Shown here one piece after another: positions 40 through 17,706 of a stretch of 22,828 nucleotides of DNA. The notes beneath the pieces were generated by a model, which ran no database searches, was not told the DNA's origin, and saw only the letters and a program-made list of their open reading frames with translations. Where the stretch lies: the IMG/VR virus record IMGVR_UViG_2737471841_000005, positions 1-22,828 of that record. One strand, written 5' to 3'. The translations under genes were made by a program, and so were the position numbers. Numbering within the stretch: position 1 is the stretch's first letter; the number at the start of each line of letters is the position of its first letter. Source of the stretch: a virus. Its lineage: Duplodnaviria; Heunggongvirae; Uroviricota; Caudoviricetes.

Positions 40-402
40 GGGGCTGATTCTGGATTCGACGGGATTTGCGAAACCCAAGGTGCATGCCGAGGGGCGGTTG
101 GCCTCGTAAAAAGCCGCAAAAAATAGTCGCAAACGACGAAAACTACGCTTTAGCAGCTTAATAACCTGCTTAGAGCCCTCTCTCCCTAGCCTCCGCTCTT
201 AGGACGGGGATCAAGAGAGGTCAAACCCAAAAGAGATCGCGTGGAAGCCCTGCCTGGGGTTGAAGCGTTAAAACTTAATCAGGCTAGTTTGTTAGTGGCG
301 TGTCCGTCCGCAGCTGGCAAGCGAATGTAAAGACTGACTAAGCATGTAGTACCGAGGATGTAGGAATTTCGGACGCGGGTTCAACTCCCGCCAGCTCCAC
401 CA
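40..402 (+). ncRNA. ssrA: tmRNA (transfer-messenger RNA, SsrA)
   Basis: Begins GGGGCTGATTCTGGATTCGACGGG and ends ...GGACGCGGGTTCAACTCCCGCCAGCTCCACCA, 363 nt, matching my memory of E. coli ssrA; contains the tag reading frame; possible -10 TATACT at 20..25 upstream. Confidence 0.95.
129..161 (+). other. tmRNA tag-peptide reading frame (ANDENYALAA + TAA)
   Basis: GCA AAC GAC GAA AAC TAC GCT TTA GCA GCT TAA read directly in the sequence; canonical enterobacterial degradation tag. Confidence 0.9.
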
Positions 403-403
403 A
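358..403 (+). repeat. attL core: 46-bp direct repeat lying in the 3' end of ssrA
   Basis: ATGTAGGAATTTCGGACGCGGGTTCAACTCCCGCCAGCTCCACCAA recurs identically at 17707..17752; identity breaks on both sides. Confidence 0.85.
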
Positions 404-575: not shown

Positions 576-1289
576 ATGGACTTCAACCTGAACAAAAAAA
601 TGCCAGTTAATAGATATCTTGTGATAATAGTTTTTGTCCTTTTAATCTTAGCCTGTATGCAGTTTATTTATCTTTGCCTTCGTTCATTAAGCATTGCCCC
701 AAACTATACGGGGACTGTAAGTGACATTATAATAGCTACAACAAATATTATTTTAGCTACCTACGCCGTTCGTGCATTCAAAAACTTATTTAAAGATAAA
801 CTATCCGATAATGCCATTAGTAAAATAGATACAGCATTGATGTCTCTCGATGATTGCATAGATAGTTTTTCAAGCTTATTTTTAAATATGACACTTATTA
901 AGATTTATAAAAACACTAATAACCCCAAGGACCCTCAGTTAGTTAAACAGCTCGATGAAGCAGCAAAAAACATCGAAAAAGCAACAAGTTCAGCCTACAA
1001 GGCAAGATCTATAATTGGCTCATTAACTCGTTGGAATATAAGCTTAAACACAGAAAAAGGAATAAGACTAAACCAACTTACCGCTGATGTTTTTGAGTTA
1101 GGCATGCAGGCAACAAATATGTATATCGCACTAATAAATGAAATAAACCCTAACTCCCCATACAACTCTTTAACTCATAGACCATTTGATGAGTTATTTA
1201 ACGAATTTAATGAAGAAAAGACCAGAGTTGAAGACGAAAGCAATGAATTAAAAGAGTTCTCTATTCATGAAATATTTAAAATCAAATAA
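576..1289 (+). CDS. Hypothetical membrane-anchored protein (AT-rich cargo gene between attL and ogr)
   Basis: 237-aa ORF; ATG at 576 with GAGG 6 nt upstream; hydrophobic N-terminal segment (YLVIIVFVLLILACMQFIYLCL) then a charged, helix-prone domain; visibly AT-rich versus the phage genes; no family recognised. Confidence 0.7.
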   Translation: MDFNLNKKMPVNRYLVIIVFVLLILACMQFIYLCLRSLSIAPNYTGTVSDIIIATTNIILATYAVRAFKNLFKDKLSDNAISKIDTALMSLDDCIDSFSSLFLNMTLIKIYKNTNNPKDPQLVKQLDEAAKNIEKATSSAYKARSIIGSLTRWNISLNTEKGIRLNQLTADVFELGMQATNMYIALINEINPNSPYNSLTHRPFDELFNEFNEEKTRVEDESNELKEFSIHEIFKIK

Positions 1290-1391: not shown

Positions 1392-1607
1392 TCAGTAAAC
1401 TAATTGCTCCTGCATCCCTTTGGGATGCGGTGGGGCGGCACTGATTTTCTCGGGACGACAAACAGAACGAACAAAGGTTTCATGCGTTACAAACGTATGC
1501 CCACACTCAATATTAGTGCACTGATTGTAACGCTCTTTGGTTTGAGAGGAGACTTGAAAACTACTGCGAGTATGTGCGGCCTGACCACACAACGGACAAT
1601 TCATCAT
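1392..1607 (-). CDS. ogr: Ogr-type late transcription activator (C4 zinc finger)
   Basis: 71 aa, MMNCPLCGQAAH...CTNIECGHTF; Cys pattern and size as in P2 Ogr; located after gene D as in P2. Confidence 0.85.
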   Translation of the reverse strand: MMNCPLCGQAAHTRSSFQVSSQTKERYNQCTNIECGHTFVTHETFVRSVCRPEKISAAPPHPKGMQEQLVY

Positions 1608-1675: not shown

Positions 1676-2776
1676 TTATTCCATCTCAAGATCACCAATC
1701 CTCACTTCAAGCTCAAGACTGGTCGTAAAACCGTTATCCGGGCTGACGGTATGTGTCAGAGTCGTAATGGTCCATTCCGCATCATCTATCGGCTGTTTAA
1801 AGCCACTGACCTTCACAGGCATTTCTGTGTAGAGGTCTGCCCGCCCTTCCGCCAGTTGTAGCGAGAATGATGCAACGCCGCGTTGCAGGCGTTCCCACTG
1901 CATTTTCGCTGCCCGTTCGGCGTTGCTCCGGTTGGCATAAGTGCGATTAAGTACCAGCACGTTTTCATCCGTACCCACCAGATAATCGCCCTGCTTCGCT
2001 TCCGGCTCTTTCTTCTGCTTCTTAGTCTTGCGCTTACGCTTCACCGTAGTGCTTTCTTTCTTCGCGGGTTCGCGGGTATGCAACCAGCTGGCAATTACAC
2101 CCGTATAGGCTCCGCGATCTGCCAGGGTAAAGCGGTGACTGTCGCCGTCTTTACGTGTGATAGAGATCACCGGCAGTGGTTTACCGCTGGCGCTTTTGCC
2201 CTGTCCCTGCCGGATGAATAACAGATTGCCATTTTTCACCGACGCGATGGCACCGTACTGTCGCGCCAGCCGCATCAGAAAACTACCGTCACTCTCATTA
2301 GTCTGGTCTATATGCTCTACGAGCTTATCCGACAGGTCTTTACCCAGTGCCATCTTCAGCTTATGCCGCGAGGCTATTTCCTTCACCACTTCCCCGACGG
2401 TGGTCTTATGCCACGATTTTTCACGGCGGGTATTCAGCGTTTCCCGAAAATCAGCACTTCGCGCCCGGATAGTCAGGCGATCCGGTGCGCCAGTGTGTTC
2501 AATCTCGTCCACCGTGAATGCCCCTTTCGGGAAAAGCGGCTGCCCCTTCCAGCCCAGCGCCAGCGTGATGACCGCACCACGGCGCGGCAGCACGATTTTT
2601 CCGTCGGCGTCGTCCAGCTCCAGATCAAGCTGGTCTGCTTCAAAGCCCCGATTGTCCGTCAACGTCAGACTCATCAGGCGGTTATCCAGCACAGTGGTGA
2701 TATCCTTCCCCTCAATACTGATGCTGAATGCGGGAGTTTTGTTGCCTTTGTTAAGCAGTTCAGAGCTGAAATTCAC
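1676..2776 (-). CDS. D: Tail protein gpD (P2 late gene D family)
   Basis: 366-aa ORF, last gene of the FI-FII-E-T-U-D synteny; GTG start overlapping the gpU stop. Confidence 0.8.
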   Translation of the reverse strand: MNFSSELLNKGNKTPAFSISIEGKDITTVLDNRLMSLTLTDNRGFEADQLDLELDDADGKIVLPRRGAVITLALGWKGQPLFPKGAFTVDEIEHTGAPDRLTIRARSADFRETLNTRREKSWHKTTVGEVVKEIASRHKLKMALGKDLSDKLVEHIDQTNESDGSFLMRLARQYGAIASVKNGNLLFIRQGQGKSASGKPLPVISITRKDGDSHRFTLADRGAYTGVIASWLHTREPAKKESTTVKRKRKTKKQKKEPEAKQGDYLVGTDENVLVLNRTYANRSNAERAAKMQWERLQRGVASFSLQLAEGRADLYTEMPVKVSGFKQPIDDAEWTITTLTHTVSPDNGFTTSLELEVRIGDLEME

Positions 2777-3258
2777 GACAGCAGCCCTCCCACCGTTTTA
2801 CTGATATCGCTTAAGGCAGACGTTGCCGTGTCCTGCAGATTATTCAGTTGAGTACTGAGATCACCGAACATATCGGACAGGGATTCATCCACCCGTTTTA
2901 GCGAAAGGGTGAACTCAATCCTGCGCGGCATACCGTCGCGGAAAAACTCCGTTTTAGTCTGATTCAGTCCCTCAATCACATACATGCCGTAAATCGTGCC
3001 GCTGCCTTCAATCAGGGGCCATGCTTTCCCCTGTTCTGCCATCTGCTCCAGTGCCAGCAACGACAGCCTGCCGCCTGTTATCTCCGGCATAAGAACACCG
3101 GAAAGCGTCAGCATGTCGTTTTCCGGTCCCAGAAACTGCGTGGACGGACGACGGTTTACCCGGCTGTTTGCCGCATGTCGCCAGCTGCGTTGATACTGCA
3201 GTTCCTGATACGGAACGGTGCGCAGCATAAACACGTACAATCCCAGCACCATCATCAT
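2773..3258 (-). CDS. U: Tail protein gpU
   Basis: 161-aa ORF between tape measure and D, translationally coupled on both sides; P2 gpU size. Confidence 0.8.
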   Translation of the reverse strand: MMMVLGLYVFMLRTVPYQELQYQRSWRHAANSRVNRRPSTQFLGPENDMLTLSGVLMPEITGGRLSLLALEQMAEQGKAWPLIEGSGTIYGMYVIEGLNQTKTEFFRDGMPRRIEFTLSLKRVDESLSDMFGDLSTQLNNLQDTATSALSDISKTVGGLLS

Positions 3259-6200
3259 GCGTCGTATCCCCCCTGATCGCTGTAGTTACTCCTGGCTTTT
3301 GCCTTCAGCCTGCGTTCACGTTCATCAAGCTGGCGTGCCACCTCCCGCGCAATATCCTGCGCACTTTGTCCTGGCTGCGTCTGAATGATGATCTGCGTCG
3401 GTGCCTCAATCCGTTGAACGAGCGGCACAGTGGCTGCGCGACTCACAATTGCTTCTCCACCTTTCGCGGGAAGTGCCAAAGGGTGCAACGGTGGAAGCTC
3501 TGCTGGCGCGGCAGCAACGCCCATCATTCCGGCAACAACGGCAGCCAGTGCAGCTGTATTTCTCCGGCTGGTCACATTTGCCGGGCCGTTAACAATTTCC
3601 GGCCCGTTTTCACCGACGATGCCAAACTGCCCGCGCGGGATATACCCGCCGCTGTCATACATCCCCGCAAAGCCATATCCCCATGACGGAAAACCACCCG
3701 ATGGCATCATCACTTTACCGTCTGCATTCACCGTCGCAGGTTGCTGACGCGTCACGCTTTCCGGCAGTTTTGCCTTTGCGGCCTCTTTACTGACAATGCC
3801 AAGTTTCTCCAGCAACCAGGAAACGCCGGATTTCAGGGAGTCCAGCGGATGCATGACCATATTCAGCCCTTCCGCCAGTGCCTCTCCGAATCGCCGCCCC
3901 ATTGCCGCTGCACTCTGCAGTTCGGCAGAGGTCGACTTAACGGGCGTCAGCAGATCAGTAAACCAGCCCCACAGCGCCTGTACTTTGTCGCCAATCCACT
4001 GGAACACGGGCTTAAGCGGTTCGAATGCTGCACTGATGGGACCTGCCGCCGCTTTGAATCCTTCCACCACGCCACCAAGAAATGCGGTGATGGGTTGCCA
4101 GTATTTCCAGACAACCAGCGCCACGCCCGCCAGTGCAGTAACCACAAGACCTATCGGACTGAGCAGAGCACCTAACAGACCAGATACGGCATACAGGGCA
4201 ACGCGCAGCATCGCCAGTGGACCAGATGCCAGTACTCGCAGCACCGTGCCTGCGGCGACCAGTCCACCGCGCAGTACCGCCAGAGGATTCATAAACATCA
4301 CAGCAACAGCACGTAAACCGGATAATCCAGACCGCAAAAGTGCAACCGGCGCACCTGCTACAGTTTTCAGGACATTTCCCGTCAGTGATGCCGTGCGGCG
4401 CAAAGACGACAACGGCGCAGTAAGTAAACCTGCGGCGTTGCCCGATGAAGCAAGCCCGCGTCGCAGCAGTGCCAGTGGTGCGCCAGCCAACCAGGACAAC
4501 GCGCTGCTGGTTCGAGTTACTGCTGCCGTAACAGAAGGTAACGTTTTGATACCCAGCACAGAGAATCCCAGACGGATCACTGCCAGCGGCCCCAGCACTG
4601 CAGCCAGCGCCACCGCTAAGGTGCCGAGGCCTACTGTAACCGCAGCCACAACAGCCGCTACTTTCATCAGTGTGCCTGTCAGTTCCGGGTTAGCTTCCAC
4701 CCAGCGGCGCAACGCCCCCGTGATTCTTTTCACCGTGTACAGAATATCCATCAGCGGCTGGCGCAGCGTTTCGCCCAGGCTGCTGAAGGTGTTCTGCGCT
4801 CCGGTTTTGACCAGCAACCACTGAGCAGAAAGTGAGTCTTTGTTGATGTCGGATTCTTTCTGCATGGAACCGAGCGCATCATTGCCCGCTGTCAGTTTTA
4901 GCTGGCGCTGCAGTTCCGGAAGGTTGTTTGCCAGTTTCGCCGCGTCATCACCAAACTCTTTACCAAACAACATGGTCATGGCAGACAGACGCTTGTCCTG
5001 CGGCAGTGCGTTCACCTTCTCCAGCACACGCTGGATAGTTCCCATCGCATCCTTCGTCATCTGCTTTTCAATCACTTCAGGATTGAGTTTCAGCAGATTC
5101 ATCCCTTCAAAGAAACTCTTGCTTTGCATGGTGGCAATGGACAATTCACGCACCATCGCGTTTGCTGCACTGGCTGCAACCTCCGGCGCAGCGCCCAGTG
5201 TCAGAAAGGTGGAACCCAGTGCCGCCGCTTTACGATAATCCAGACGATCAGCCACACCGCCCAGGCGTTGCATGACATCAATGATGTCTGCCCCTTTCGA
5301 CATGGCGTTATCATCCAGATAGTTCAGCGCATCACCGAGCTGTTCAATATTGCGGGTAGGGATTTTGTAGAGCTGGGCGATTTTCCCCAGACTTTCTGAC
5401 AGTTCATCCGCTGGCAGCTCAAAGGCTGTTGCCGCCTTTGCTGCCGTGCTGGCGAAGGCCAGCAGATCACGTTTCTGGTCTTCCCAGCTGTCGTCAGGGT
5501 TTGCGACGTTCATGCGCGCCCCACCTTCAACCAGTGCAGCGAAGTCCACCGCACCGTTTTCCATCGGCAGCTGTTCGCTGGCAGCCTTGATGGCATCCTG
5601 CATTTCATAAAAACGCGCAGTGCGGTTGCCATTATCGTCACGCAGACCATTGACCTGCTTTGCCACACCTTTCATGGCATCTTCCATGCTGGTATAGCTT
5701 TTTACTGCCGCCATCACTGGCGCACCCATTGCCAGCCCTGCAGCCGTGGTAGTGGCTCCGGCTCCTGCGATGCGATCGCGCACTTCAAGCCGTCTTGAGT
5801 ATTGTTCTCTGGCAGCGTTCATCCGTGCCTGTTGTTCACCCAGACGTTTAAGTGCTCTTTGCTGGCCCTCCAGTGCCTGCCTTGTTTCTTCAGCATTTTT
5901 CTTAAGTTCTCGCTGGGCACTACTGAGTTGTCTGGTATCAATCCCTGATTCTTTAAGTGCCTGACGTTGTCTCTGGACCGCCCCCAACAAGCCGTTATAG
6001 GTCTGCTGAAGTTCCTGTACTCGTGTTTTGGCCTGACTGAATAACTTTGCCTGCGCGGCGGTTGGCCTGTTAGTGGCAGCAAATTGTGTGGCGAGTTTTG
6101 CCGCCTCTTCGCGGGCTGCGTTCAGGTTGTTGGCTGTTATGGCTAGTTGCGAGCGCGTCTTGCGAAATTCATCAATTCTGCCAGCCTGCTTATTCAGTTC

Positions 6201-6332
6201 TTTGAGGCTGTTTCGGGTATTCTGAATTGCGCCAGCCAGCTCTTTCGAACTGGCCTGTGCAGCACGGAATGGGCGGGTGAGTTTGTCAACCGTATTAAGA
6301 ATGACCTGCAGGCGCAGGTTATTATCACTCAT
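3255..6332 (-). CDS. T: Tail tape measure protein gpT
   Basis: 1025-aa ORF; N-terminal coiled-coil-like region, Ala/Gly/Leu-rich hydrophobic stretches, C-terminal domain; position after E/E' as in P2. Confidence 0.9.
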   Translation of the reverse strand: MSDNNLRLQVILNTVDKLTRPFRAAQASSKELAGAIQNTRNSLKELNKQAGRIDEFRKTRSQLAITANNLNAAREEAAKLATQFAATNRPTAAQAKLFSQAKTRVQELQQTYNGLLGAVQRQRQALKESGIDTRQLSSAQRELKKNAEETRQALEGQQRALKRLGEQQARMNAAREQYSRRLEVRDRIAGAGATTTAAGLAMGAPVMAAVKSYTSMEDAMKGVAKQVNGLRDDNGNRTARFYEMQDAIKAASEQLPMENGAVDFAALVEGGARMNVANPDDSWEDQKRDLLAFASTAAKAATAFELPADELSESLGKIAQLYKIPTRNIEQLGDALNYLDDNAMSKGADIIDVMQRLGGVADRLDYRKAAALGSTFLTLGAAPEVAASAANAMVRELSIATMQSKSFFEGMNLLKLNPEVIEKQMTKDAMGTIQRVLEKVNALPQDKRLSAMTMLFGKEFGDDAAKLANNLPELQRQLKLTAGNDALGSMQKESDINKDSLSAQWLLVKTGAQNTFSSLGETLRQPLMDILYTVKRITGALRRWVEANPELTGTLMKVAAVVAAVTVGLGTLAVALAAVLGPLAVIRLGFSVLGIKTLPSVTAAVTRTSSALSWLAGAPLALLRRGLASSGNAAGLLTAPLSSLRRTASLTGNVLKTVAGAPVALLRSGLSGLRAVAVMFMNPLAVLRGGLVAAGTVLRVLASGPLAMLRVALYAVSGLLGALLSPIGLVVTALAGVALVVWKYWQPITAFLGGVVEGFKAAAGPISAAFEPLKPVFQWIGDKVQALWGWFTDLLTPVKSTSAELQSAAAMGRRFGEALAEGLNMVMHPLDSLKSGVSWLLEKLGIVSKEAAKAKLPESVTRQQPATVNADGKVMMPSGGFPSWGYGFAGMYDSGGYIPRGQFGIVGENGPEIVNGPANVTSRRNTAALAAVVAGMMGVAAAPAELPPLHPLALPAKGGEAIVSRAATVPLVQRIEAPTQIIIQTQPGQSAQDIAREVARQLDERERRLKAKARSNYSDQGGYDA

Positions 6333-6761
6333 CGTTGGCCCCGCTTCTCTGAATCGCTTTATACCGCCATTCCAGCACTTCGGTCAGCGGCATAACGTCA
6401 GTAACGGATGGCGGCCAGTGAAAGATGGTGGCGATATCAGCCACCAGATCGTCAACCGTCAGGCTGTCGGTAAACCGGCAAGCACCGACTTCTTCAACAA
6501 AAAAGTGACAACCTCAACCGACATGGCAGTGAGATCTGCCGGGTCCATCTCTGCGATTTCCTGTGCAGTCAGTGCCGGACTGGAGATGCGGGGGATCACG
6601 GTCATCATCGCGTTCACATCCATATCCATAATGGCCTGCAGGCGTGTGCCGCGCAGCGCACCGGACTGCGGTTTACGCAGCACAATTTCGGTAATTTCTG
6701 TTTTACCGCGCATGATGGGAGTATCCAGTTTAATAGTCTTTTCAGTCTGCTTATCGCTCAT
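6325..6761 (-). CDS. E': gpE+E' fusion made by programmed -1 ribosomal frameshift at T TTT TTG (6498..6504)
   Basis: Slippery heptamer on the minus strand at codons 87-88 of E; the -1 frame stays open for 57 codons (VEEVGACRFTDSL...RSGANDE) and stops at TGA 6325..6327 overlapping the gpT start; about 145 aa total, as for P2 E+E'. Confidence 0.7.
6459..6761 (-). CDS. E: Tail assembly chaperone gpE (in-frame product)
   Basis: 100-aa ORF MSDKQTEKTIKLDTPIMRGK... between FII and T; carries a T TTT TTG slippery site near its 3' end. Confidence 0.85.
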   Translation of the reverse strand: MSDKQTEKTIKLDTPIMRGKTEITEIVLRKPQSGALRGTRLQAIMDMDVNAMMTVIPRISSPALTAQEIAEMDPADLTAMSVEVVTFLLKKSVLAGLPTA

Positions 6762-6815
6762 TTTGCTGTCCTGTAAATTGGGTTCTGGCGCGGCATTCCG
6801 CGCCGTTCAGATACA

Positions 6816-7331
6816 TCAGAGGCCGAGGGCGTTGCGGTGCGCTTCCATCAGGTCCACACCGTCCACAATTTCCACCATGTTGATAAGGTCCACTTCATAG
6901 AGCACCTCACCATTGATAGTCAGCTTCGCGTAGCTGTTGGTACTGGTCACTTTGGTGGTGTTGCTTTCGCCCGTCTTCCACTCGCCGGAATCCACTTCTT
7001 TGTGACGTCCACGCACCACAAGCTCCACGGCCTGCACTTCTCCGGTATCGTCACGCTGGATAGAGCCGGTGAAGCGCAACTGGATGCCATCCACCGTGGC
7101 TTTGCCCATCTGTTTAAACAGCAGCAGTTCAGTACCACCAATGGAAAATTCTGTGTCCAGCGCACTGTCATCAAGCCCCAGATCCACATCCACTGCACCC
7201 GGCATTCCGCCGCCGCGATACTTCTCATATTTGCGGGTGAATTTCGGCAGCGTCAGCGACTCAACGATCCCCTGCCAGTTGTTCCCGTCATTAAACAGGT
7301 TCAGGTGTTTTAATTTGCGTGGTAAAGCCAT
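6816..7331 (-). CDS. FII: Tail tube protein gpFII
   Basis: 171-aa ORF MALPRKLKHLNLFNDGNNWQG..., size and position as in P2 FII. Confidence 0.9.
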   Translation of the reverse strand: MALPRKLKHLNLFNDGNNWQGIVESLTLPKFTRKYEKYRGGGMPGAVDVDLGLDDSALDTEFSIGGTELLLFKQMGKATVDGIQLRFTGSIQRDDTGEVQAVELVVRGRHKEVDSGEWKTGESNTTKVTSTNSYAKLTINGEVLYEVDLINMVEIVDGVDLMEAHRNALGL

Positions 7332-7340
7332 GTTGTCCCC

Positions 7341-8513
7341 TTACGCGCTGACCTGGCTGGAGAAATTCACCAGGTACTGATCGGTGATGCGCTGACGCAG
7401 CATCAGGTTTTCAAGTGGCGGCACTGGCGTGTAGTCGTAGTCGATGGTGAGTTTTCCGGCTTTCAGCGTGTCTTTGTCGTTCACCGACTCATCCAGCCAG
7501 CAATCACCACCAATGAGATAGCCCTGACTGACCAGGCTGCGCATTTTGGCGCGGATACCCTCGATAATGTCGCGGGCCAGCGACGGGTTAAGCGGTTTAT
7601 CCACCGCCCACATGTGTGCTTCTGCCATCGTGTCCATCAGTACCTGCGCTGTACGGGTGTAGTTCTCGAAGGCAAAGAGCGGGTCATCACTCAGGCAGCG
7701 GGAACCCCAGAAGCGGAAACCATCCTTGCGCACAAGCGTGGTGACGTCGTTCTGGTTCAGCAGACCTGCATCGGTTGCCGGGTCCTGCAGATCCCAGAAC
7801 ACATCAGCAGAAATTCCGGTGACACCGTTCACGCCCACGTTGGACAGGCTTTTGTGCCATCCGGTCTGCTCATCAATTTTGGCGCGCAGACCGAGCGCAC
7901 GGGCGGTGGCATAAGCCGTTGCTTCGGCATTCAGCACCGTGTCCCAGCCAGTAAAGTCGGGCCAGATCAGCATTCCTTCACGCTGACTGAAGTTTTCACG
8001 GTAAGTGATCGCCTCCTGTACCGTCTTGCAGCCATACGCTGACAGGTAAGCAAACCCACGCAGGCTTTGCGCCACGCTCAGCAACTCAGTAGCTACCGCC
8101 TTGGTGTCGTGGCCTGGCACGCCGAGAATGCGCGGTTTAACGCCGAGCTGTGACTGGGCAGATAACAGGGCTTTCATACCTGTTTTTTTACCTTCAGCAG
8201 TCACTGCGCCGATGATATTGGTCGTGGTTTCGTCTTCCGTTTCACCCTGCGGCACACGCACAACAATGGTCACGGGTTTTGCCTGGTCAGCGATGGCATC
8301 CAGCGAACGGGCCAGAGTACCTGACTCACCCGCTTTACCGCTGGCAGTCAGCACATCAGTGATCAGCACGGGTTTATTAAGAGGAAACATTTTTGCATCG
8401 GCATCATCGCCCGTGCAGACCATACCCACGATGGCGGTGCTCACCGTGGTAATAGATCGGGTGCCTTCGTTGACTTCAACAACGCGCACCCCGTGGTGGT
8501 AATCCTGAGCCAT
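7341..8513 (-). CDS. FI: Contractile tail sheath protein gpFI
   Basis: 390-aa [22 protein letters not shown]..., first gene of the tail operon; AGGAGG RBS upstream. Confidence 0.9.
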
Positions 8514-8589
8514 AGTGGCGAACCTCCTGATTGGATTAGGCTTCGCCCTATGTTGAAGTGATTGTGCCTGACAAACAGCTAAGCGCAGT

Positions 8590-8607
8590 TGTGTCGTTAT
8601 TCACACA
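8590..8607 (-). promoter_or_regulatory. Candidate Ogr-dependent late promoter element (TGT-N12-ACA dyad) for the FI operon
   Basis: TGTGTCGTTATTCACACA dyad about 85 bp upstream of the FI start codon; matches the P2 late-promoter activator site pattern. Confidence 0.4.
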
Positions 8608-8655
8608 AAATAACGGTATTTGTCTGCTTGCAGGGATAATCAACATAATGCTGAT

Positions 8656-9228
8656 TCAGGGGGATTCATTGATCTTATTTGCCGGAAATTTTCTATAAAT
8701 GGTAGAAACGCCTACATCAAAAATCAGTGCAATACGCTGTCTTGATTCTCCGGCCTCGAGTAAACGCCCAATCTGTGCCCACTGTTCGGTGGTCAACTTA
8801 GGATGGCGTCCACCTACTCTGCCTTTGGCACGAGCTGCAGCCAGCCCTGCCCTGGTACGTTCAACTATCAGTTCGCGTTCCATTTCAGCCAGGGCACCCA
8901 TGACATGAAAAAAGAAACGGCCCATTGGGGTACTGGTATCAATACTGTCAGTCAGGCTTCTGAAATTCACACCACGCTGGCGCAACTCTTCTATCAGCGT
9001 AACAAGATGCCGCATACTGCGCCCCAACCTGTCCAGCTTCCAGACAACCAGCGTGTCTCCTGCCGATAGTGTCCTGAGTAGTTTTTTCAGCCCCGGTCTG
9101 TCGGACTTAGTGCCACTGATTTTGTCCTCAAAAATCTGCTCACATCCCGCGCAGTTCAGTGCATTACGTTGCAAATCGGTGTTCTGGTCATTTGTTGACA
9201 CGCGTACATAGCCAATAAGCATGATCAT
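8656..9228 (-). CDS. Serine DNA invertase, Pin/Gin/Cin/Hin family
   Basis: 190 aa, MLIGYVRVSTNDQNTDLQRNAL... with catalytic Ser motif and C-terminal HTH; likely true start at the MLIGY Met (9222). Confidence 0.9.
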   Translation of the reverse strand: MIMLIGYVRVSTNDQNTDLQRNALNCAGCEQIFEDKISGTKSDRPGLKKLLRTLSAGDTLVVWKLDRLGRSMRHLVTLIEELRQRGVNFRSLTDSIDTSTPMGRFFFHVMGALAEMERELIVERTRAGLAAARAKGRVGGRHPKLTTEQWAQIGRLLEAGESRQRIALIFDVGVSTIYRKFPANKINESP

Positions 9229-9276
9229 CCCCCTGAATAAAAACCGGAGATGATGCCAGTTAGCTGTTACCTCTGC

Positions 9277-9302
9277 ATTTTCTTAAACGTTGGTTTGGGA
9301 GA
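9277..9302. other. Invertase crossover site (gix/pix-like, 26 bp)
   Basis: Reverse complement TTCTCCCAAACC-AA-CGTTTAAGAAAA resembles the gix half-site TTATCCAAAACC with a central AA dinucleotide; about 50 bp upstream of the invertase start, as gixR is for gin. Confidence 0.55.
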
Positions 9303-9663
9303 AGCAGCGAAACGGGGTGTGGGAACAGGGGAAAATCAGATACCGGACATGGCTTCTTTTGCCAGTGGTGATGGATGGATGAAATTACCCAACGGTAAAA
9401 TTCTGCAATATGGTCGAGGTGAGGCTATGCCGAAATTATCGACGCAAACAATGAGGATTACATTTCCTATCCCTTTCCCTAAAAAAGCGGACTGCGCCAT
9501 TCTTACCCATTCTGGTGATGGCGGTGCGCCTTTAGGCGCTGGGCGAGGGTTCGTGATGACTGCAGAAGGCCCTACGTTAACCGGCTTTAATTCTGCTTAC
9601 AGAACGTCATCAACCAGCGACACGGTATCTATGCATTACAGTTGGTGGGCTGTTGGTGAGTAA
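9277..9663 (+). pseudogene. Orphan tail-fibre variable C-terminal segment (Sv'-like)
   Basis: Reading frame opens at the crossover site and runs away from the invertase; Gly/Ser/Thr-rich fibre-tip-like sequence; no constant N-terminal fibre part in the window. Confidence 0.45.
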
Positions 9664-9674
9664 TTTTATTCAGG

Positions 9675-9850
9675 GTGATTTATATGAACGAATATGTTTA
9701 TAGTGCCAAGCATAATGCTTTTTTCCCTGTGGATATGATTGATAAATATAAATCAGTAGGATGGGATTTATCAGATGCTAAGGAGGTGAATCAAAATATT
9801 GTCAGTGAGTTTATGGCTGAACCGCCACAAGGAAAAGTCCGTATTTCCGC
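9675..9850 (+). pseudogene. Tail-fibre assembly (Tfa/U'-like) gene, N-terminal fragment
   Basis: Starts MNEYVYSAKHNAFFPVDMIDKYKSVGW, resembling the N-terminus of phage tail-fibre assembly proteins; recognisable sequence stops after about 55 codons where the gpA-like gene overlaps on the other strand. Confidence 0.45.
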
Positions 9851-10951
9851 GATAAGCTCCAGACCTTTAACACAGACCATCATCTCATTGCGGCGATGCG
9901 CAGGGTTGCTGCTGCTGGCGTTTACCACATCTTCCATATCCAGCGTGTCGCCGTCTTCGTTCACCAGTTCATGAGAACGAAAAAACTCCAGCGACTTACG
10001 GCGCTGCTCACGTTTATGCATCACGGCTTCATAGCTGACATAGGGGGATGCTTTTTTGCTGACCAGGCAGACAGCACGCAACTGCTCTTCCCGCCATTCG
10101 CAACGCATCTTCCATAATTTCCGATACCACCAGTCGGCACACAACATACGCGCCAGCGAACCCGGAATGAGTTCATAGGGCACGGGTTTACGGCGGTTTC
10201 TTTTCCGACGGAGTTGCTCAAACGCAGGCGGAATAACATCCAGACGCAGGGTTTCCGCTGCCACCTTTTCCCATGTTTTGCGGATTTCTTCTGGCTTAAC
10301 GTCATCGGTGGCATACAAATCGCCACAAGCTGCATCAAGACACATGCTCATATGCGCAGCAACAAGGGTGGACAGGCGTTTCACCTGATCCTGACTCATT
10401 TCAGGCAGGATCAGCAGGCCGTCCAGCCCTTCATGGCTTGCCATAAAGCGAAAAGAAGTGGATAGCTGACTCTCGCGTACATGCTCCAGTCGTTCCAGAC
10501 ATGGCTTAATCGTCTCACGCAAATAGCGGGAATAAGCCTTTGGCCTGCCCAGGCTGCTGAAGTATTCAATACGTTGCATCAGCGGCTTGCTGATATGGGA
10601 AGGCTGGGCGTTGACGTCCGCCAGAATGACCATGTCTGGATTAAAACGCTGCTGCTCATGCGCCAGCTTTGCCCGGCTAATGAGCTTATCCTGCTCCATT
10701 TCGCGCTGGACAGGATCACGGGATTCATTAAAGAAATAACGCTCCCAGACCTGATCACTCAGTGCCTCGCGGCGCAGTTGTTCCTGCTCGTTATCGGCAG
10801 CGTACAGAGTGATCAGGTTTGAAAGCGCAGAAACCGGCGCAACTTCTGCCGGGTCCAGATAAGGGTTAATAGCCTTTTTCGGGCTGTCCCATGAGAATGC
10901 TGCGGCGGCCTCGTTAAAGCCGCTGCAGTTGTTCATATCAGCATGGCTCAT
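9791..10951 (-). pseudogene. gpA-like replication initiation protein, C-terminally truncated by a deletion
   Basis: 386-aa ORF coupled to dam upstream (ATGA overlap) in the gpA position; about half the length of P2/186 gpA and ends in non-conserved sequence overlapping the tfa fragment. Family call is by position and weak recall. Confidence 0.45.
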
Positions 10952-11805
10952 GCACGCACTCCGTACACGGCAGAACTATCCACGCCACGCGAAGGATCAA
11001 ATCCCACCCAGCAGCGCGCCCCAGAAACAGCGATGATTTCTGTTGCAGATTTACTCTCACCAGCTGCTACGCCGATGCTGCGTTTTGCCTTGATGTAGTG
11101 GTGAGTAAAATTGCGATACAGCGAACGGATCAGGGATGTGTCACTGTTAGAAACAATGACCGGATGTCCTTCTGATGACCGATGTTCAAGAACGGATGCC
11201 AGGTGATACTGGTCATCTTCAGTGAAGCCGTCAGTGTGATAACCGGAAAACGTGCCGTCATACGGCGGATCGCAATACACCACATCCCCCGCCTTCAACA
11301 TCGCCAGCGTTTCATCAAAGCTGGCGCAGATAAACGTTGCCCGCTGGGCTTTCTCTGCAAATGCGCGAATTTCTTTTTCAGGGAAATACGGATTTTTATA
11401 ATTACCGTAGGGAATGTTGAAATACCCGCTCTTGTTATAGCGACATAACCCACGGTAACCATGACGATTGAGATACAGAAAATATACCGCTTTCATGAAA
11501 TCAGTAATTTCAGTGGAGTAATTAAACTCCTGCCTTATGTTGTAATAAGCCACCTCCCTGTTTGCTTCCTCAAATAAAGCTCTGGCACGAGATATAAATG
11601 CCTCACAATCAGCAGCAACCTTTTTATAGAGGTTGATTAAATCAGGATTAATATCCGCAACAAGATAGCTGGGGTAATCCGTCTCCATCATCACAGCACA
11701 GGAACCCGCGAAAGGTTCAACCAGTCGCGGGCCAGCAGGAAGGTGTTTTTTCAGTTCGGACATAATGGCGGTTTTATTTCCCGCCCATTTCAGGATGGTG
11801 CTCAT
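10948..11805 (-). CDS. dam: DNA adenine methyltransferase (Dam-like, GATC N6-adenine MTase)
   Basis: [11 protein letters not shown]...LVEPFAGS...DPPY motifs as in E. coli Dam; GGAGGTG RBS 5 nt before the ATG at 11805; overlaps the TraR-like stop. Confidence 0.9.
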
Positions 11806-12029
11806 ACAGCACCTCCGTTGTAATGTTTGCCTTTCAGCTCTGCAATTTCCTGGCAGGTAATGCAAAGCTGCACACCCGGAATGGCACGGCGGCGTGCTGG
11901 CGGAATTGGCGCTTCACACTCAATGCAAAGCACGCGAGACACGCCCGGTGTTTTGGCACGGGCAGCACGGATATGGCGCTGGCGTTCTTCTTCAACGCGC
12001 TGCTGTACGAGATCCATTGCATCAGCCAT
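11802..12029 (-). CDS. TraR/DksA-family C4 zinc-finger protein
   Basis: 75 aa with CIECEAPIP...CITCQ Cys pairs; typical small P2-like early-region gene. Confidence 0.8.
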   Translation of the reverse strand: MADAMDLVQQRVEEERQRHIRAARAKTPGVSRVLCIECEAPIPPARRRAIPGVQLCITCQEIAELKGKHYNGGAV

Positions 12030-12268
12030 TAGTGGATCTCCTGCGCTTCGTTCTGGATTGCTTCAGCAGTCACACGCAGCAGTTCTGCCGCTTCCACGTG
12101 GTTTAGCTGACGGGATGAGATATGACACGCCAGGCTATCAAGGCGAGCTGCCATTGCTTCAGCCCTTGCCCGGCGTTCTTCCAGACGAGCCTCTGTCAGT
12201 AAAATATTAAGCCCTGCATCATCCGGTCCGGTTTTAGTCATGAGGATTTCAATATTACGCATAATCAA
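12029..12268 (-). CDS. Hypothetical phage early-region protein
   Basis: 79-aa ORF in the early operon, tightly packed with neighbours; no family recognised. Confidence 0.5.
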   Translation of the reverse strand: MIMRNIEILMTKTGPDDAGLNILLTEARLEERRARAEAMAARLDSLACHISSRQLNHVEAAELLRVTAEAIQNEAQEIH

Positions 12269-12329
12269 TTCTCCTGAATTTAGATAAAGGGATGCTCGGC
12301 GGGTTTACGCCATTAATTTCATTAGTTGG

Positions 12330-12671
12330 TTAATTCGGCATGGTTAGCCGTCTGGGAAATAAGCTCACCACTGCACGAAAATGATTCATTGCTTTAATCA
12401 ACTCCCGCTTTTCGTCAGTGGTCAGCTCATTGATGCTGATGCTATGACGTTCAGCCGGAATTTTTGCCATAAAGAATATGGCTGCCAGTGCTCGTTTATT
12501 TTGTTCGTTATTGATATCCCGTGGATCACGCATATCTTTAATAAACCGCTCAAGCTCTGACTCAATATTCAGGCCAAAAACTTTCGCCCTTAATTCCGCT
12601 ATGTGATTAAGTCCATTCAGGCGTTCACCGGGGCTTAATGGAACAGTCGCCGCAGCGCCTTCAATAGCCAT
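12330..12671 (-). CDS. Hypothetical phage early-region protein
   Basis: 113-aa ORF in the early operon; no family recognised. Confidence 0.5.
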   Translation of the reverse strand: MAIEGAAATVPLSPGERLNGLNHIAELRAKVFGLNIESELERFIKDMRDPRDINNEQNKRALAAIFFMAKIPAERHSISINELTTDEKRELIKAMNHFRAVVSLFPRRLTMPN

Positions 12672-12835
12672 TTGTTCCCCCGTTTTTTCGTAGATAGTTC
12701 TGCCAGCAATTCATCTTGTGAACGGCACGGATGCCAGCGTTTACCATCCTCACCCATGATCCAGCCGTGACCGTAGTGCATTGCCGGACTTTGTTTTACC
12801 AGCAGCGATGCAAATGATGGTTCTTTCGTCAGCAT
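12635..12835 (-). CDS. Hypothetical small phage protein
   Basis: ORF downstream of cII; likely start at the internal Met (MLTKEP), avoiding overlap with cII. Confidence 0.4.
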   Translation of the reverse strand: MLTKEPSFASLLVKQSPAMHYGHGWIMGEDGKRWHPCRSQDELLAELSTKKRGNKWLLKALRRLFH

Positions 12836-12842
12836 AAGCACC

Positions 12843-13352
12843 TCACAGCAAACCGAATGAAGCACCGAGGCCGGTTACAGTATCAACTGCACTTGCCATC
12901 GCAGGATTAACCTGTAAACGGGCCTGCAATGAAACAGCAGCTAACGCCATCAGTCGTGTAACAGAGTTAATGCTGCTGATAGCATCACGACGACCTGCAC
13001 TGGTTTTTACATCGCCAGATACCGCACCTGCAGCAACACGCCCGATCTCTGCGGTTGCACTCATGACGTAATGTGGCAGTTTCTCTTTTGCCACCTCATT
13101 AATCGGTACACATGGCAGGCAGTGAATCTGTGCCAGAAAACCGTCTACCAGCGTTGAATCTTCCGTCAGATCGGTAAGTAGCCAGATATCTGGCGCATTG
13201 AGCTGATGCGGTTGATCTGGGTTGAGTTTGTTTCGCAGAGTCTGGACATTCATTCCTGAACGTTCTGCCAGCTTCGCCATATTGTGACGAAGTGCAAAAG
13301 CTCTACAGGCTTCATCAAAATGCGGGTGTTTGGAAATCTTATAATCAAACAT
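12843..13352 (-). CDS. cII: 186-type CII lysogeny-establishment regulator
   Basis: 169 aa, MFDYKISKHPHFDEACRAFALRHNMAKLAE...; size and second position in the rightward operon match coliphage 186 CII. Confidence 0.7.
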   Translation of the reverse strand: MFDYKISKHPHFDEACRAFALRHNMAKLAERSGMNVQTLRNKLNPDQPHQLNAPDIWLLTDLTEDSTLVDGFLAQIHCLPCVPINEVAKEKLPHYVMSATAEIGRVAAGAVSGDVKTSAGRRDAISSINSVTRLMALAAVSLQARLQVNPAMASAVDTVTGLGASFGLL

Positions 13353-13384
13353 GCTACCCCCTTAGAAAGTTCTCATAATTGAAC

Positions 13385-13627
13385 TTACTTACCAACAATG
13401 ACGCGGAAGTTGGAATGACCGAGGGATTCACGGACCTGATCGGTTTTGTACATTAAATAACGCAGGCTTACGCGGCCTTTGTTTTTTTCTTTCTTGACCA
13501 TGTATTTAGCAAGCTGACCATGATGAATTTTTTGATACACAGAGCCGCGGGAGATACCTTCCCATTCCGCGAACTCTGCAGGCGTAGCCATCTCTTTTGG
13601 TACACGAATTGAAATATCAGTGCTCAT
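13385..13627 (-). CDS. apl: Apl/Cox-type excisionase and transcriptional regulator
   Basis: 80-aa basic HTH protein, first gene of the lytic operon, divergent from cI; GGAG RBS upstream. Confidence 0.7.
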   Translation of the reverse strand: MSTDISIRVPKEMATPAEFAEWEGISRGSVYQKIHHGQLAKYMVKKEKNKGRVSLRYLMYKTDQVRESLGHSNFRVIVGK

Positions 13628-13685
13628 AGTGCAGTATCTCCCGATTAAGGTTTGGTTTACGTCGTTTTATCTCGTTTTACTTGAT

Positions 13686-13729
13686 TCAATATTTGATACA
13701 TCGAGATACTACGATCCAATATTTGATAC
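13686..13729. repeat. Two 13-14-bp direct repeats (CAATATTTGATAC) spaced 30 bp apart, bracketing the pR -10; candidate CI operators
   Basis: Copies at 13686..13699 and 13716..13729; second tandem pair TCGTTTTA at 13662..13669 and 13672..13679. Confidence 0.45.
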
Positions 13730-13734
13730 GTCAA
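13706..13734 (-). promoter_or_regulatory. Candidate lytic promoter pR for apl-cII (-35 TTGACG, 17-bp spacer, -10 TAGTAT)
   Basis: Minus-strand hexamers at 13729..13734 and 13706..13711 with 17-bp spacing, about 75 bp upstream of the apl ATG. Confidence 0.55.
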
Positions 13735-13746
13735 CAGGATTAAAAA

Positions 13747-14379
13747 ATGATACAGGTAAAGGTTGGAGAGAATACAGGGGGAAGAGAGGCTATCCATAGA
13801 CTAATGGCAGCCTATGATTTCAAGTCCAGACAGCAACTTTGCGATCACTTAGGCGCATCAAAAAGCACCATGGCAAACAGATACTTAAGAGATAGTTTTC
13901 CTGCAGAGTGGGTGATTCAGTGCGCCTTGGAAACAGGAGTTTCTTTACTGTGGCTAACCACCGGACAGGGGGAGCCAGGTCCAAACATTGAACCTAAAAA
14001 AAATATCAATTCCGTGAACTCCAGCAAGGTTGTACCTCTTTCTGAACTAGTATCTCCTGAAATTGACAAGGCGACTCTCAACGGTGGTTTATTGGTCGAT
14101 GCTGGAAAAGCAATCATTGATAGCAGCATACTCCCCTCAGACTCAAGCAACCTACTGCTGGTGACTACTTCTGGTGATTCTTATTTAATAGATCGCAACC
14201 AAACACCACCAGTAAATGGTATGTGGTTAGTCGATATTGACGGGATAAAAAGCATTGTTAAATTGACTCGACTTCCGGGAAACAAATTAGTAGTGCATCA
14301 GGATGATTCATCGTTTGAGTGTGGCCTAGATGACATTGAGGTAGTAGGCCGCGCACTGAAAATCATTAAGAGCCTTTGA
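13747..14379 (+). CDS. cI: 186-type CI immunity repressor
   Basis: 210 aa; N-terminal HTH region with ...CALETGVSLLWLTTGQGEP resembling 186 CI; immediately precedes int on the same strand. Confidence 0.8.
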   Translation: MIQVKVGENTGGREAIHRLMAAYDFKSRQQLCDHLGASKSTMANRYLRDSFPAEWVIQCALETGVSLLWLTTGQGEPGPNIEPKKNINSVNSSKVVPLSELVSPEIDKATLNGGLLVDAGKAIIDSSILPSDSSNLLLVTTSGDSYLIDRNQTPPVNGMWLVDIDGIKSIVKLTRLPGNKLVVHQDDSSFECGLDDIEVVGRALKIIKSL

Positions 14380-14380
14380 T

Positions 14381-15397
14381 ATGACCATCAGAAAACAGCC
14401 GAACGGAAAATGGTTGTGTGAGTGCTATCCCAATGGACGCAATGGTAAGCGCGTGCGTAAGCAATTTGCTACGAAAGGCGAAGCCATTGCTTTTGAAAGC
14501 TTCACAATGGAAGAAGTGAATAAAAAACCGTGGTTGGGTGAAAAGGATGATCGGCGACGCCTATCAGAATTAATTGAGCTTTGGTATTCCCTGTATGGTC
14601 AGACACTCGCAGACCCCAAGCGCCTCATGGCGAAACTTAGAATTATCTGTAATGGTCTAGGCGACCCCATCGCCTCAGAACTGACAGCCGGTGACTTTAC
14701 GAAATACCGCGAAGCACGATTAAAAGGTGACGTTCGTAACGAAGACGGCACACTAATGTCGCCAGTAAAACCACGCACGGTGAATCTTGAGCAACGTAAC
14801 CTATCATCGGTTTTCGGCACATTGAAAAAACTAGGCCACTGGTCAGCACCAAATCCTCTCGCCGGGCTGCCAACATTTAAAATCGCTGAGGGGGAACTGG
14901 CGTTCCTGACCTCGGAAGAAATTAAACGTCTGCTAGATGCCTGCGCTGATTCTCAAAACCCCAGTCTGCTTTTGATTGCAAAAATATGCCTGGCCACCGG
15001 CGCACGCTGGAGTGAAGCTGAAAACCTGCAGGGCCATCAGTTATCTAAATACCGCATCACTTATACCAAGACGAAGGGTAAGAAAAACCGCACCGTGCCG
15101 ATATCTCAAGATCTGTATGACGAACTCCCCAAGAACAGAGGGAAGCTATTCACCCCGTGCAGAAAAGCCTTTGAACGAGCAGTAAAGCGAGCTGGCATCG
15201 AGCTGCCAGAGGGCCAATGCACTCACGTGCTACGTCATACATTCGCCAGCCATTTTATGATGAATGGCGGAAACATACTGGTGCTGCGCGATATTCTGGG
15301 CCATGCCGATATAAAAATGACGATGATTTACGCCCACTTTTCGCCCGATCACCTTGAAGATGCGGTAACTAAAAACCCTTTATGCAACTTAAGATAG
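14381..15397 (+). CDS. int: Tyrosine integrase, P2/186 family
   Basis: 338 aa; N-terminus like P2 Int (PNGRNGKRVRKQFATKGEAIAFE), catalytic ...TGARWSEA..., HVLRHTFASHFMMNGG and MIYAHF (R-H-R-Y). Confidence 0.92.
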   Translation: MTIRKQPNGKWLCECYPNGRNGKRVRKQFATKGEAIAFESFTMEEVNKKPWLGEKDDRRRLSELIELWYSLYGQTLADPKRLMAKLRIICNGLGDPIASELTAGDFTKYREARLKGDVRNEDGTLMSPVKPRTVNLEQRNLSSVFGTLKKLGHWSAPNPLAGLPTFKIAEGELAFLTSEEIKRLLDACADSQNPSLLLIAKICLATGARWSEAENLQGHQLSKYRITYTKTKGKKNRTVPISQDLYDELPKNRGKLFTPCRKAFERAVKRAGIELPEGQCTHVLRHTFASHFMMNGGNILVLRDILGHADIKMTMIYAHFSPDHLEDAVTKNPLCNLR

Positions 15398-15713
15398 AGT
15401 AACTTATGAAAACAAACTCAAACTATTTACAAATATAATATTCAGCAGGTTATCCATTCTCATTTAACTCTTCAGACTGAGTTTAGGTTTTATTTATAGA
15501 ATAAGATAATTTTTACATCACAAAAAAACATATAAGCCCTCATCTTTGTTGTATAAAAACATCAAAGATGCCACATTCAAAAATAGTAGAAAAGCATAGC
15601 ATTGCAACATTAAAAAGAAACCAATAAAAAACAGTCATTAGAAAATGAAAAAAACAAAAACATTTTTTATCGAAGCTTCAGTCTGACTACTAGTTTGACT
15701 CTGCAATTAACTT

Positions 15714-15745: not shown

Positions 15746-15777
15746 AGCTTACCTCAGGAAGGATGAGTATAATATTT

Positions 15778-17511
15778 CTACTCAAGGAGATATTCTAACT
15801 CATCTTTTATCGGGATAATTTGCTCATAAAGTCGGTGATATGACTTCCCAATTGCGCCTCTAAATTGTATTAACTTTGGTGGCTTACTACCTATATTAAT
15901 AATATGGTCTTGAGCTATACCTGGGTAGGGATCAATAAATACAATTTCAGATATACCTAACTGATAAGCTTTTTTCGCACACAACTCACAGGGACTGGCA
16001 GTTGTATACAACTTCCCCCCCAGAACGCCAATACCACCATATTTTGCAAGTTGTAAAAATGCGTTTTCCTCAGCATGTAATGCACGTGTATGAACTTGAT
16101 TACCTTTTTTCTCTTTATCAAGATCATTATGTATATCTTTAAAACAATAAGATAAGTTCCTGCCTCTATAAATATCACCAGTTTTATCTATCGCCCTAAA
16201 ATTTAAGAGTTTCTCATTAGCTTTAATTCTGAAAGAACTATTATTTCTCTCATAATGACTGTACGTTTTTTCATCAAAATCGTTCATTAGGCCATCTAGA
16301 GATCTCATAGAGCAAGGAATCTGACCGTTGGCAACATCATTCCAACCAACTGATTTTATTGAATTATCACCATCAGTTACTACAGCTCCCACCTGTCTAG
16401 ATATACAGCCAGAGTTTAATTTTACCGTATACGCAACTTGCATAACCCTTTCCATTGCAGTAGGTGTTATCAGACCAGGATGCTTCATCAGTGCGATGTA
16501 CCACGCTAATTGTGCTTTTAAAATATTGTCATTATCAAATTCATTTTTTGGGTTAAAAATGTGTATATCTGATAGTTCAATACATTTAGTTACATTTGGA
16601 TTGGTGAGATGTTTGTAAGAGTTATCACCTTTACCTGACTCTACAGAATCTATTTCCTCTATCTGCTTTTCTGAAAACTTATGTAGTTTCCGCAAATAGT
16701 TTGTTCGATGTTCATCTGGGGCATTTATTGACATTAAATGAAATGCAGAATATCTATCCTTAAAAAATTTTGCCTCATATGGATTTCTAATAGCATCTAT
16801 GACAATTAATGCGTTATCTCTTTTGCTTTTTCTTATTAATTTAATAACCCTATTAATAGTTTCCGGCAAATGAAAAACAGATTTAGGCATAAACTCTTTA
16901 TCTTCAAAATCGACTTCAATACGCCCACGACGTCTAATTGACTTACCTGCTAACTGATAGGCTGAAACATATAAATTTGAGTTTATCTCATTTAGTTCAG
17001 CTTTGAATTCTTTAGTAAATTTTCTAACTAACTTCAAAATTGATATAAATTTATTAATCGTTTTTTCATCAAGCTTCAATTCACTATTATGATCAAGCAA
17101 ATTCTCAATTACATTTTTAAATCTTGTCAAAATGAGATTATCTGAGAATACACCAAAAGTTAATACAATATCTAAATGCTCTTTACTGATAAATTTATTA
17201 GATGATAGAATGAATTCAGAAGCTTCCTCAACTGTTAACATCAGAAGATACGCTGAGATTAGGTCACTCACCTTAATTGAGTAAAAATTTTCCCAGTGAT
17301 TTTCTGCGAATTTTTTAACTATATTATAACGATGGACATCCAATCCCTTGTAAAACCCCTGTAATTTACTTACATCAGGGAAGACTGTTTTTTCGTTTTC
17401 AAGAATATTAGCTGTTGTTGTGCAACCAGAACCAGTTCGACCTGTCAAACCGACTAAAATAAACTGCCCATTTTCAAGGAAAAGCTCACTAACGAATTTT
17501 TTTTCTTTCAT
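15778..17511 (-). CDS. P-loop kinase-like / cytidine-dCMP deaminase fusion protein (AvcD/Dcd-type anti-phage candidate)
   Basis: 577 aa from ATG 17511 (GTG at 17514 in the track); N-terminal P-loop-like VGLTGRTGSGCTT, C-terminal zinc deaminase motifs HAEENA (around 16075) and PCELCAKK (around 15990); strongly AT-rich; sits between int and attR. Confidence 0.85.
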   Translation of the reverse strand: MKEKKFVSELFLENGQFILVGLTGRTGSGCTTTANILENEKTVFPDVSKLQGFYKGLDVHRYNIVKKFAENHWENFYSIKVSDLISAYLLMLTVEEASEFILSSNKFISKEHLDIVLTFGVFSDNLILTRFKNVIENLLDHNSELKLDEKTINKFISILKLVRKFTKEFKAELNEINSNLYVSAYQLAGKSIRRRGRIEVDFEDKEFMPKSVFHLPETINRVIKLIRKSKRDNALIVIDAIRNPYEAKFFKDRYSAFHLMSINAPDEHRTNYLRKLHKFSEKQIEEIDSVESGKGDNSYKHLTNPNVTKCIELSDIHIFNPKNEFDNDNILKAQLAWYIALMKHPGLITPTAMERVMQVAYTVKLNSGCISRQVGAVVTDGDNSIKSVGWNDVANGQIPCSMRSLDGLMNDFDEKTYSHYERNNSSFRIKANEKLLNFRAIDKTGDIYRGRNLSYCFKDIHNDLDKEKKGNQVHTRALHAEENAFLQLAKYGGIGVLGGKLYTTASPCELCAKKAYQLGISEIVFIDPYPGIAQDHIINIGSKPPKLIQFRGAIGKSYHRLYEQIIPIKDELEYLLE

Positions 17512-17706
17512 CACGTCCCACTTATGAATGCAAGAACAATTAGCATATTAATTATAATTTATTAACTAATTTTATTCTAGATGCTTGATGTAATGGCGGC
17601 ACTTTGGCGGCAGAGCATTAAAAACGCGTAAGACGAGCAAATACAAAATAACACTAACACATTGTTTTCAAACATAATCTACTGTTTTTACTATAATAAA
17701 AATGGT

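Follow-up and report, generated by a model that had tools for sequence, protein, structure and literature searches.

A grounded P2/186-like prophage remnant at ssrA of Escherichia coli, with a very probable internal deletion between tfa' and gpA

The window analysed here, which comprises all 22,828 nucleotides of a Caudoviricetes record in IMG/VR (IMGVR_UViG_2737471841_000005), contains an abrupt joint between two phage genes. An earlier note had placed a Tfa-like N-terminus on the plus strand directly against a gpA-like gene on the minus strand at about 9840..9860, and had taken this joint for the scar of a large internal deletion. Two questions follow from this arrangement. First, by what event were the two genes brought together? 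Second, which functions does the element that carries them still possess?

The window is E. coli chromosome, its flanks being 99-100% identical to thousands of E. coli genomes, and within it a 17.4-kb element at 358-17752 consists of P2/186-type genes enclosed by exact 46-bp att repeats at ssrA (Table 1). Read from right to left on the minus strand, the element presents the 186-type switch, DUF5347, DUF2732, a DksA-like gene, dam and the gpA-like ORF, and then abruptly the Tfa-like stub; past the stub, in the same direction, follow the fibre-tip gene, the serine invertase, FI, FII, E/E', T, U, D and ogr. The fibre-tip gene and the stub are encoded on the plus strand, as are CI and Int, and apl, cII and fil on the minus strand. 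The genes int, CI, apl/cox, cII and gpA are thus found together with a P2-type tail module with ogr, all bounded by att sites, as in the Peduoviridae, and the orthologues within the element are full length, stand in parental order and are 93-100% identical to those of a prophage in E. coli PEC1011. Positions 358-17752 are the remnant of a ~35-kb P2/186-like prophage (Elveevirus/Felsduovirus-like) at ssrA.

Table 1. Coordinates of the features of the prophage remnant and its attachment site in the window.
Feature	Position	Strand	Evidence or remark
ssrA (tmRNA gene)	40-402		ARAGORN
attL (ssrA 3' end)	358..403	+	exact 46-bp direct repeat of attR
orf237 (237 aa), between attL and ogr	576..1289	+	100% to PEC1011 orthologue
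ogr/delta late activator, intact	1392..1607	-	100% over 71 aa to PEC1011
Tail module, intact	1676..8513	-	tblastn full-length matches 99.4-100%; Pfam sheath domains
gpD	1676-2776	-	tail module
gpU	2773-3258	-	tail module
Tape measure	3255-6332	-	tail module
gpE'	6325-6444	-	tail module
gpE	6459-6761	-	tail module
Tube FII	6816-7331	-	tail module
Sheath FI	7341-8513	-	tail module
Pin/Gin/Hin-type serine DNA invertase, intact, orphaned	8656..9228 (annotated start 9222)	-	Resolvase 2.3e-53 + HTH_7; 97.9% over 188 aa to PEC1011
Silent fibre tip, Sv'-type	9250..9663	+	Pfam Gp53-like_C 1.8e-13; same layout beside pinE in E. coli C1 and P2-T22
Invertase crossover site, sole one left	9279..9304	.	TTCTTAAACGTTGGTTTGGGAGAA; core AAACGTTGGTTT; only AAACC-NN-GGTTT-like match near segment
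tfa' fragment	9684..9845	+	codons 1-54 of 147-codon Caudo_TAP (PF02413) gene
Truncated gpA (386-aa ORF)	9791..10951	-	residues 1-369 (9845-10951) of 804 + 17-aa junction-derived tail
Deletion junction	9843..9845		three-way alignments; ATT common to both parents, inside 8/10 imperfect match 9840-9849 (tfa CGTATTGCCG, gpA CGCATTTCCG)
Early operon, intact	10948..13627	-	full-length matches 93.5-100%; Pfam
dam	10948-11805	-	early operon
DksA-like	11802-12029	-	early operon
DUF2732	12029-12262	-	early operon
DUF5347	12330-12671	-	early operon
fil	12635-12835	-	early operon
cII	12843-13352	-	early operon
apl/cox	13385-13627	-	early operon
186-type CI repressor, intact	13747-14379	+	Phage_CI_repr + Phage_CI_C; 100% to PEC1011
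Integrase, intact	14381-15397	+	integrase domains; 96.7% to PEC1011, full length
Cargo, 578-aa dCTP-deaminase-type anti-phage defence gene, int-att hotspot	15778..17514	-	PADLOC dCTPase 1.1e-145; Pfam dCMP_cyt_deam_1 1.6e-14
attR	17707..17752	+	46 bp, 100% identical to 358-403

An intact prophage of this type, ~36 kb long and likewise integrated at ssrA, is found in E. coli PEC1011 (NZ_CP159540, 1,128,8xx-1,164,6xx). Window 1-9304 is 99.3% identical to it and window 9840-15392 is 95.6% identical, with order and orientation conserved. The two arms are likewise colinear with phage Cartapus, and the gap between them amounts to 19.7 kb in PEC1011 and to ~17.6 kb by Cartapus coordinates. All genes flanking the junction are full length (93.5-100% identity). 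Since both arms follow the gene order of an intact prophage in this location, the arrangement calls for one simple deletion, as the earlier note had supposed, and we hold it very probable that a single internal deletion of about 17-19 kb fused the stub of a silent-cassette tfa' to the 5' 46% of gpA. The size is given as a range, set at about 17.5-19 kb, because the closest intact sibling has a different fibre cassette and the stated lower identity on the right arm, and because the exact parent was not found; the best matches in complete E. coli genomes reach 98.6% on the gpA side and 99.5% on the tfa side, and the search for the parent gave no single record supplying both arms with the same fibre cassette. 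A history of two steps, the deletion and then further loss at the same edge, may also be considered.

What has gone was determined by a tblastn comparison of 22 PEC1011 proteins, from orf62/DinI through to tfaE, with the window. No match was obtained in the window for orf62, the DinI-like protein, the cargo of the gpA-gpQ hotspot, portal Q, terminase P, O, N, M, L, X, holin, lysozyme, LysB, R, S, V, W, J, I or tfaE, and none for the cos region of Cartapus. The constant part of the fibre gene H is lost as well, and the C-terminal tip of H is only 37% identical to the silent Sv' gene (9289-9660). The fibre, baseplate, lysis, capsid, terminase and portal genes had been predicted to be missing, and they are; the Q-P-O-N-M-L head and packaging operon and cos, by which a functional member of the Peduoviridae is recognised, are both absent.

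The joint itself can be placed to within three bases. In a base-by-base alignment the T at 9842 is peculiar to tfa and the T at 9846 to gpA, and the crossover therefore lies within the ATT at 9843-9845, inside the interval proposed before, 162 nt into tfa' and 1,109 nt into gpA. The same picture is given by BLAST against phages, in which homology to gpA begins at 9840-9843 (96-97% identity in RE2010, Cartapus, PEC1011 and many Klebsiella and Salmonella P2-like phages) and Tfa-type homology on the plus strand ends at 9845-9849 (99.5% to an E. coli C1 prophage, and 94-95% to pro483 and to P2-T22 / O157:H43 'P2' phage). The earlier note had suggested placing the endpoints by alignment of complete genomes and looking for microhomology; alignment to PEC1011 and Cartapus puts the endpoints in tfa' and gpA, and microhomology is present as the exact ATT within an 8/10 imperfect match. 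When 200,000 junctions were drawn at random from the intact sibling, an exact match of at least 3 bp had a probability of 0.054, an 8/10 match of 0.003 and both together of 0.002, so the 3-bp exact microhomology taken alone is weak evidence (P about 0.05).

We propose that the ssrA-integrated prophage would have undergone one internal deletion by illegitimate recombination at short imperfect homology. This type of recombination is favoured because the ATT lies within the 8/10 match and ~540 bp away from the only invertase site. Judging from the anatomy of the junction, the likely route would be RecA-independent, by replication slippage or by microhomology-mediated joining. The product would be a 'grounded' island that comprises the CI/Apl/CII switch, the integrase and att sites, dam, the tail module from sheath to gpD and the dCTP deaminase.

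The tfa side of the joint belongs to a fibre switch. The Tfa stub is a silent-cassette member of a Pin/Gin-type invertible segment, rather than an expressed fibre chaperone or a P2 G-type gene. The promoterless fibre tip and tfa' both point away from the invertase, which is the 'off' arrangement also seen beside pinE in E. coli C1 and in P2-T22, and window 9287-9370 aligns, inverted, with the fibre gene H of both Cartapus and PEC1011. The crossover site at 9279-9304 forms the left border of the former invertible segment; it resembles AAACC-NN-GGTTT, which we take to be the consensus for crossover sites of Gin/Pin-type invertases. Its partner inverted repeat sits in the H gene of the intact relatives and is deleted here, no partner repeat being left in the window, and the invertase therefore has a single site. 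The fibre switch is frozen and without function, and no expressed fibre gene is left for it to act on. In the G segment of Mu with Gin, in P1 with Cin and in e14 with Pin, a serine invertase likewise stands beside two opposed cassettes of fibre tip and Tfa, with the crossover site at the boundary between the constant and variable parts of the fibre as in the window, whereas the window keeps one cassette stub and one crossover site.

With an intact serine invertase 615 bp from the junction and one endpoint inside the former invertible segment, it is natural to ask whether this neighbouring Pin/Gin-type enzyme recombined its crossover site with a direct pseudo-site in gpA and thereby resolved out the intervening DNA. 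Resolution of this kind would, however, produce a hybrid site where the two genes meet, and no such site is present. The sole crossover-type site lies intact at 9279-9304, and the AAACC-NN-GGTTT core occurs neither in the junction CCGTATTTCCGCG nor in the tfa or gpA parent at the breakpoint. Because the junction lies ~540 bp from the site and is devoid of the crossover core, we consider it very improbable that the invertase made the deletion.

Alternatively, the junction could have arisen by chimeric assembly, or could mark an end of an inverted or translocated block, the prophage being complete in the cell. The known carriers are indeed all draft or short-read assemblies, and the junction was found in none of 5426 complete RefSeq E. 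coli genomes and had no exact match among the GTDB species representatives. However, the identical 386-aa fusion ORF that spans the junction is present in at least six E. coli contigs assembled independently of one another, among whose sources are the NCBI assemblies GCA_005391745.1 and GCA_005400305.1 and the Logan assemblies of SRR29037622 and SRR4294895; three GenBank protein records contain it under the name 'replication protein [Escherichia coli]', and one carrier contig matches 20,951 bp of the window at 100% identity. Moreover, there is no repeat at the junction to mislead an assembler, and between the exact attL and attR repeats both arms have the order and orientation of the parent, so that a missing block could not be accommodated there. 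Because the same fusion ORF was assembled independently so many times, the junction is not an assembly artefact, and a prophage that is complete in the cell is left with hardly any probability. In one strain (GCA_005400305.1, BIDW01000030.1) the same junction is accompanied by a nested 5,083-bp deletion equivalent to window 3678-8760, which runs from the tape-measure gene into the invertase and has 2 bp (TA) of microhomology. Given the shared junction and the nested deletion in this sister strain, the junction has been passed on within a small lineage of E. coli and decay of the element continues, the sister strain displaying the next step in the decay of the same remnant.

Both ORFs at the junction are dead fragments. 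The reading frame of tfa' truly begins with the ATG at 9684 rather than with the GTG at 9675; its first 54 amino acids are identical to the C1 Tfa, after which the similarity stops and the ORF continues through antisense gpA to a stop at 9972-9974. The full-length 147-aa Tfa matches Caudo_TAP at 2.6e-29, and the fragment, which falls short of the full TAP domain of ~130 residues, gave no match in Pfam. In the 386-aa ORF, the 17 residues at the C-terminus are an antisense reading of tfa', and the match to Pfam Phage_GPA (PF05840) ends at profile position 179/321, whereas that of the full-length orthologue covers 1-321. A tblastn search with PEC1011 gpA aligned residues 1-371 with the window at 96.5%. 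On one point the earlier note has to be reversed, since it had the 3' part of gpA surviving, while it is the 5' (N-terminal) 46% that is kept and the 3' 54% that is lost. We give virtually no credence to the idea, which that note had named as the finding that would overturn it, that each of the two ORFs is a complete gene from another family within a naturally compact element such as a satellite or a tailocin locus: both are uninterrupted with start codons and GenBank names the longer one simply 'replication protein', but that ORF is residues 1-369/804 of gpA at 96.5% followed by antisense tfa' and bears half of the GPA profile, the other is residues 1-54/147 of Tfa and then unrelated, and the window holds no cos and no satellite hijacking, baseplate or lysis genes. 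A P4-like satellite was rejected on the lack of cos and of P4-type genes among the window ORFs, and an R-type tailocin on the absence of baseplate, expressed fibre and lysis genes from the window. The 386-aa 'replication protein' of GenBank and the 96/99-aa ORF are artefacts of the deletion that should be annotated as pseudogenes, and the locus is to be counted among defective rather than inducible prophages.

With regard to the second question, the break removes the catalytic half of gpA. In an alignment with the A proteins of P2 and 186, the HUH motif (HHDGTxHWH) is found at residue 438 of the 804-aa orthologue, beyond the break at 369. The Tyr pair of YIAKYISK at residues 498/502 of the orthologue aligns with Tyr450/454 of P2 A, which we take to be the catalytic, active-site pair, and is absent from the window ORF. 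In the records of P2 and 186 the ori nick is annotated within the A gene, at codons 620 and 611 respectively, and the ori neighbourhood of P2 aligns weakly to nt 2016-2043 of the sibling gpA, a region that is deleted here. The window ORF thus possesses neither a complete GPA domain with its HUH motif nor the Tyr pair and intragenic ori.

The region 3' of gpA is lost as well. Immediately downstream of gpA in PEC1011 (11990-12534 of the stretch compared), a LexA box TACTGTAAATATAAACAGT precedes a 62-aa ORF and a DinI-like gene. The product of the DinI-like gene shares 39% identity with 186 Tum over the C-terminal half of Tum (residues 71-145), and between the 62-aa ORF and the N-terminal half no similarity was detected; phage 186 has a single 146-aa Tum, whereas in the intact siblings there is a split arrangement of the 62-aa ORF and a separate DinI-like gene. 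No Tum or DinI match was found in the window, and a search of the window for LexA boxes gave one CTGT-N8-ACAG match, at 16393 within the deaminase gene, no more than chance would give. The 186-type SOS induction module, a LexA box with a Tum/DinI-like gene 3' of gpA, is therefore missing. The earlier note had expected the 186-type antirepressor tum to be gone; by position and homology, the unit lost here is the LexA box/orf62/DinI-like unit of the siblings, whose antirepressor role is putative. From its sequence, the remnant would presumably be unresponsive to SOS. Because it is devoid of the gpA active site, ori, cos, the SOS operon and the head, lysis, baseplate and expressed fibre genes, the element cannot replicate, lyse the cell or make particles; the earlier expectation that it forms no particles and does not replicate by itself accords with the deletion of the gpA catalytic half, the ori-corresponding region, cos and the head and baseplate genes.

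The retained genes are in good order. CI, apl, cII, fil, dam, int and the cargo gene are all full length, just as the cargo, immunity switch, dam and integrase had been described. The earlier description needs correction in that FI-FII-E-T-U-D and ogr are intact too; the retained module from sheath to gpD is nevertheless useless without a baseplate. In P2-like phages the main defence hotspot, gpA-gpQ, adjoins cos (Rousset et al., bioRxiv 10.1101/2021.01.21.427644). Here this hotspot has been lost along with cos, and the deaminase occupies the minor int-att defence hotspot of P2-like phages.

Compared with its intact relatives, namely the PEC1011 prophage, Cartapus (NC_070909, Elveevirus) and RE2010 (NC_019488, Felsduovirus), the remnant has the same integration site and the same gene order in its arms at 95.6-99.3% nucleotide identity, and shares the 186-type CI/apl/cII/fil switch, the coupling of dam with gpA, an invertase-controlled fibre cassette and the FI-to-D tail module with ogr. 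It differs from them in lacking everything between gpA codon 370 and tfa' codon 54, in having a silent fibre cassette of the pro483/P2-T22 type, and in having the dCTP deaminase in place of their int-proximal cargo.

The element is an ordinary grounded, decaying prophage, neither surprising nor new in kind, since defective P2-like prophages with a broken gpA and conserved defence genes have already been described. GpA is the core gene most often pseudogenised in defective P2-like elements, and neighbouring defence genes are conserved (PMC13586616). Sp13 of E. coli O157 Sakai is a degraded P2-like prophage that can reportedly still be induced, and be packaged when other prophages assist (PMC2669165). 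In these elements, as in the present one, morphogenetic and replication functions are lost and accessory or defence genes are intact; Sp13, however, was reported to be inducible and packaged with such help, whereas the element described here is known from its sequence. The specific deletion with its mapped endpoints is apparently undescribed, and it offers a cleanly mapped case of a P2/186-like prophage that would have been grounded in a single step with its repressor and defence gene kept.

One could go further and suppose that selection retains the remnant as a domesticated island for immunity and defence, in which CI would exclude homo-immune P2/186-like phages and the deaminase would block others, the deletion having been favoured for removing every lethal or inducible function (gpA/ori, the SOS operon and lysis). 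We regard this as rather unlikely. If it were true, the tail module, ogr and int/att would be available for rescue by recombination with a superinfecting P2-like phage, or for mobilisation by one.

Some features in and around the element deserve mention in their own right. The product of orf237 had no match in Pfam or PADLOC, and the part of the window that contains its gene (1-1400) has the same layout in 12 complete E. coli genomes; orf237 is a candidate for a second cargo gene or a moron. A 34-bp near-perfect palindrome (15713-15746) occupies part of the gap that separates the stop codon of int from the deaminase gene, and may act as a bidirectional terminator. Beyond attR (17753-21990), an AIDA-repeat autotransporter is broken into three ORFs (20309-21301, 18267-20369 and 17912-18238), a remnant of another invertase lies at 21580-21738, and a second copy of the ssrA 3' end is present (21915-21990 versus 388-464, 93.5%). 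This region looks like an older decayed element in tandem at ssrA, and is followed by ypjCB (DUF5508).
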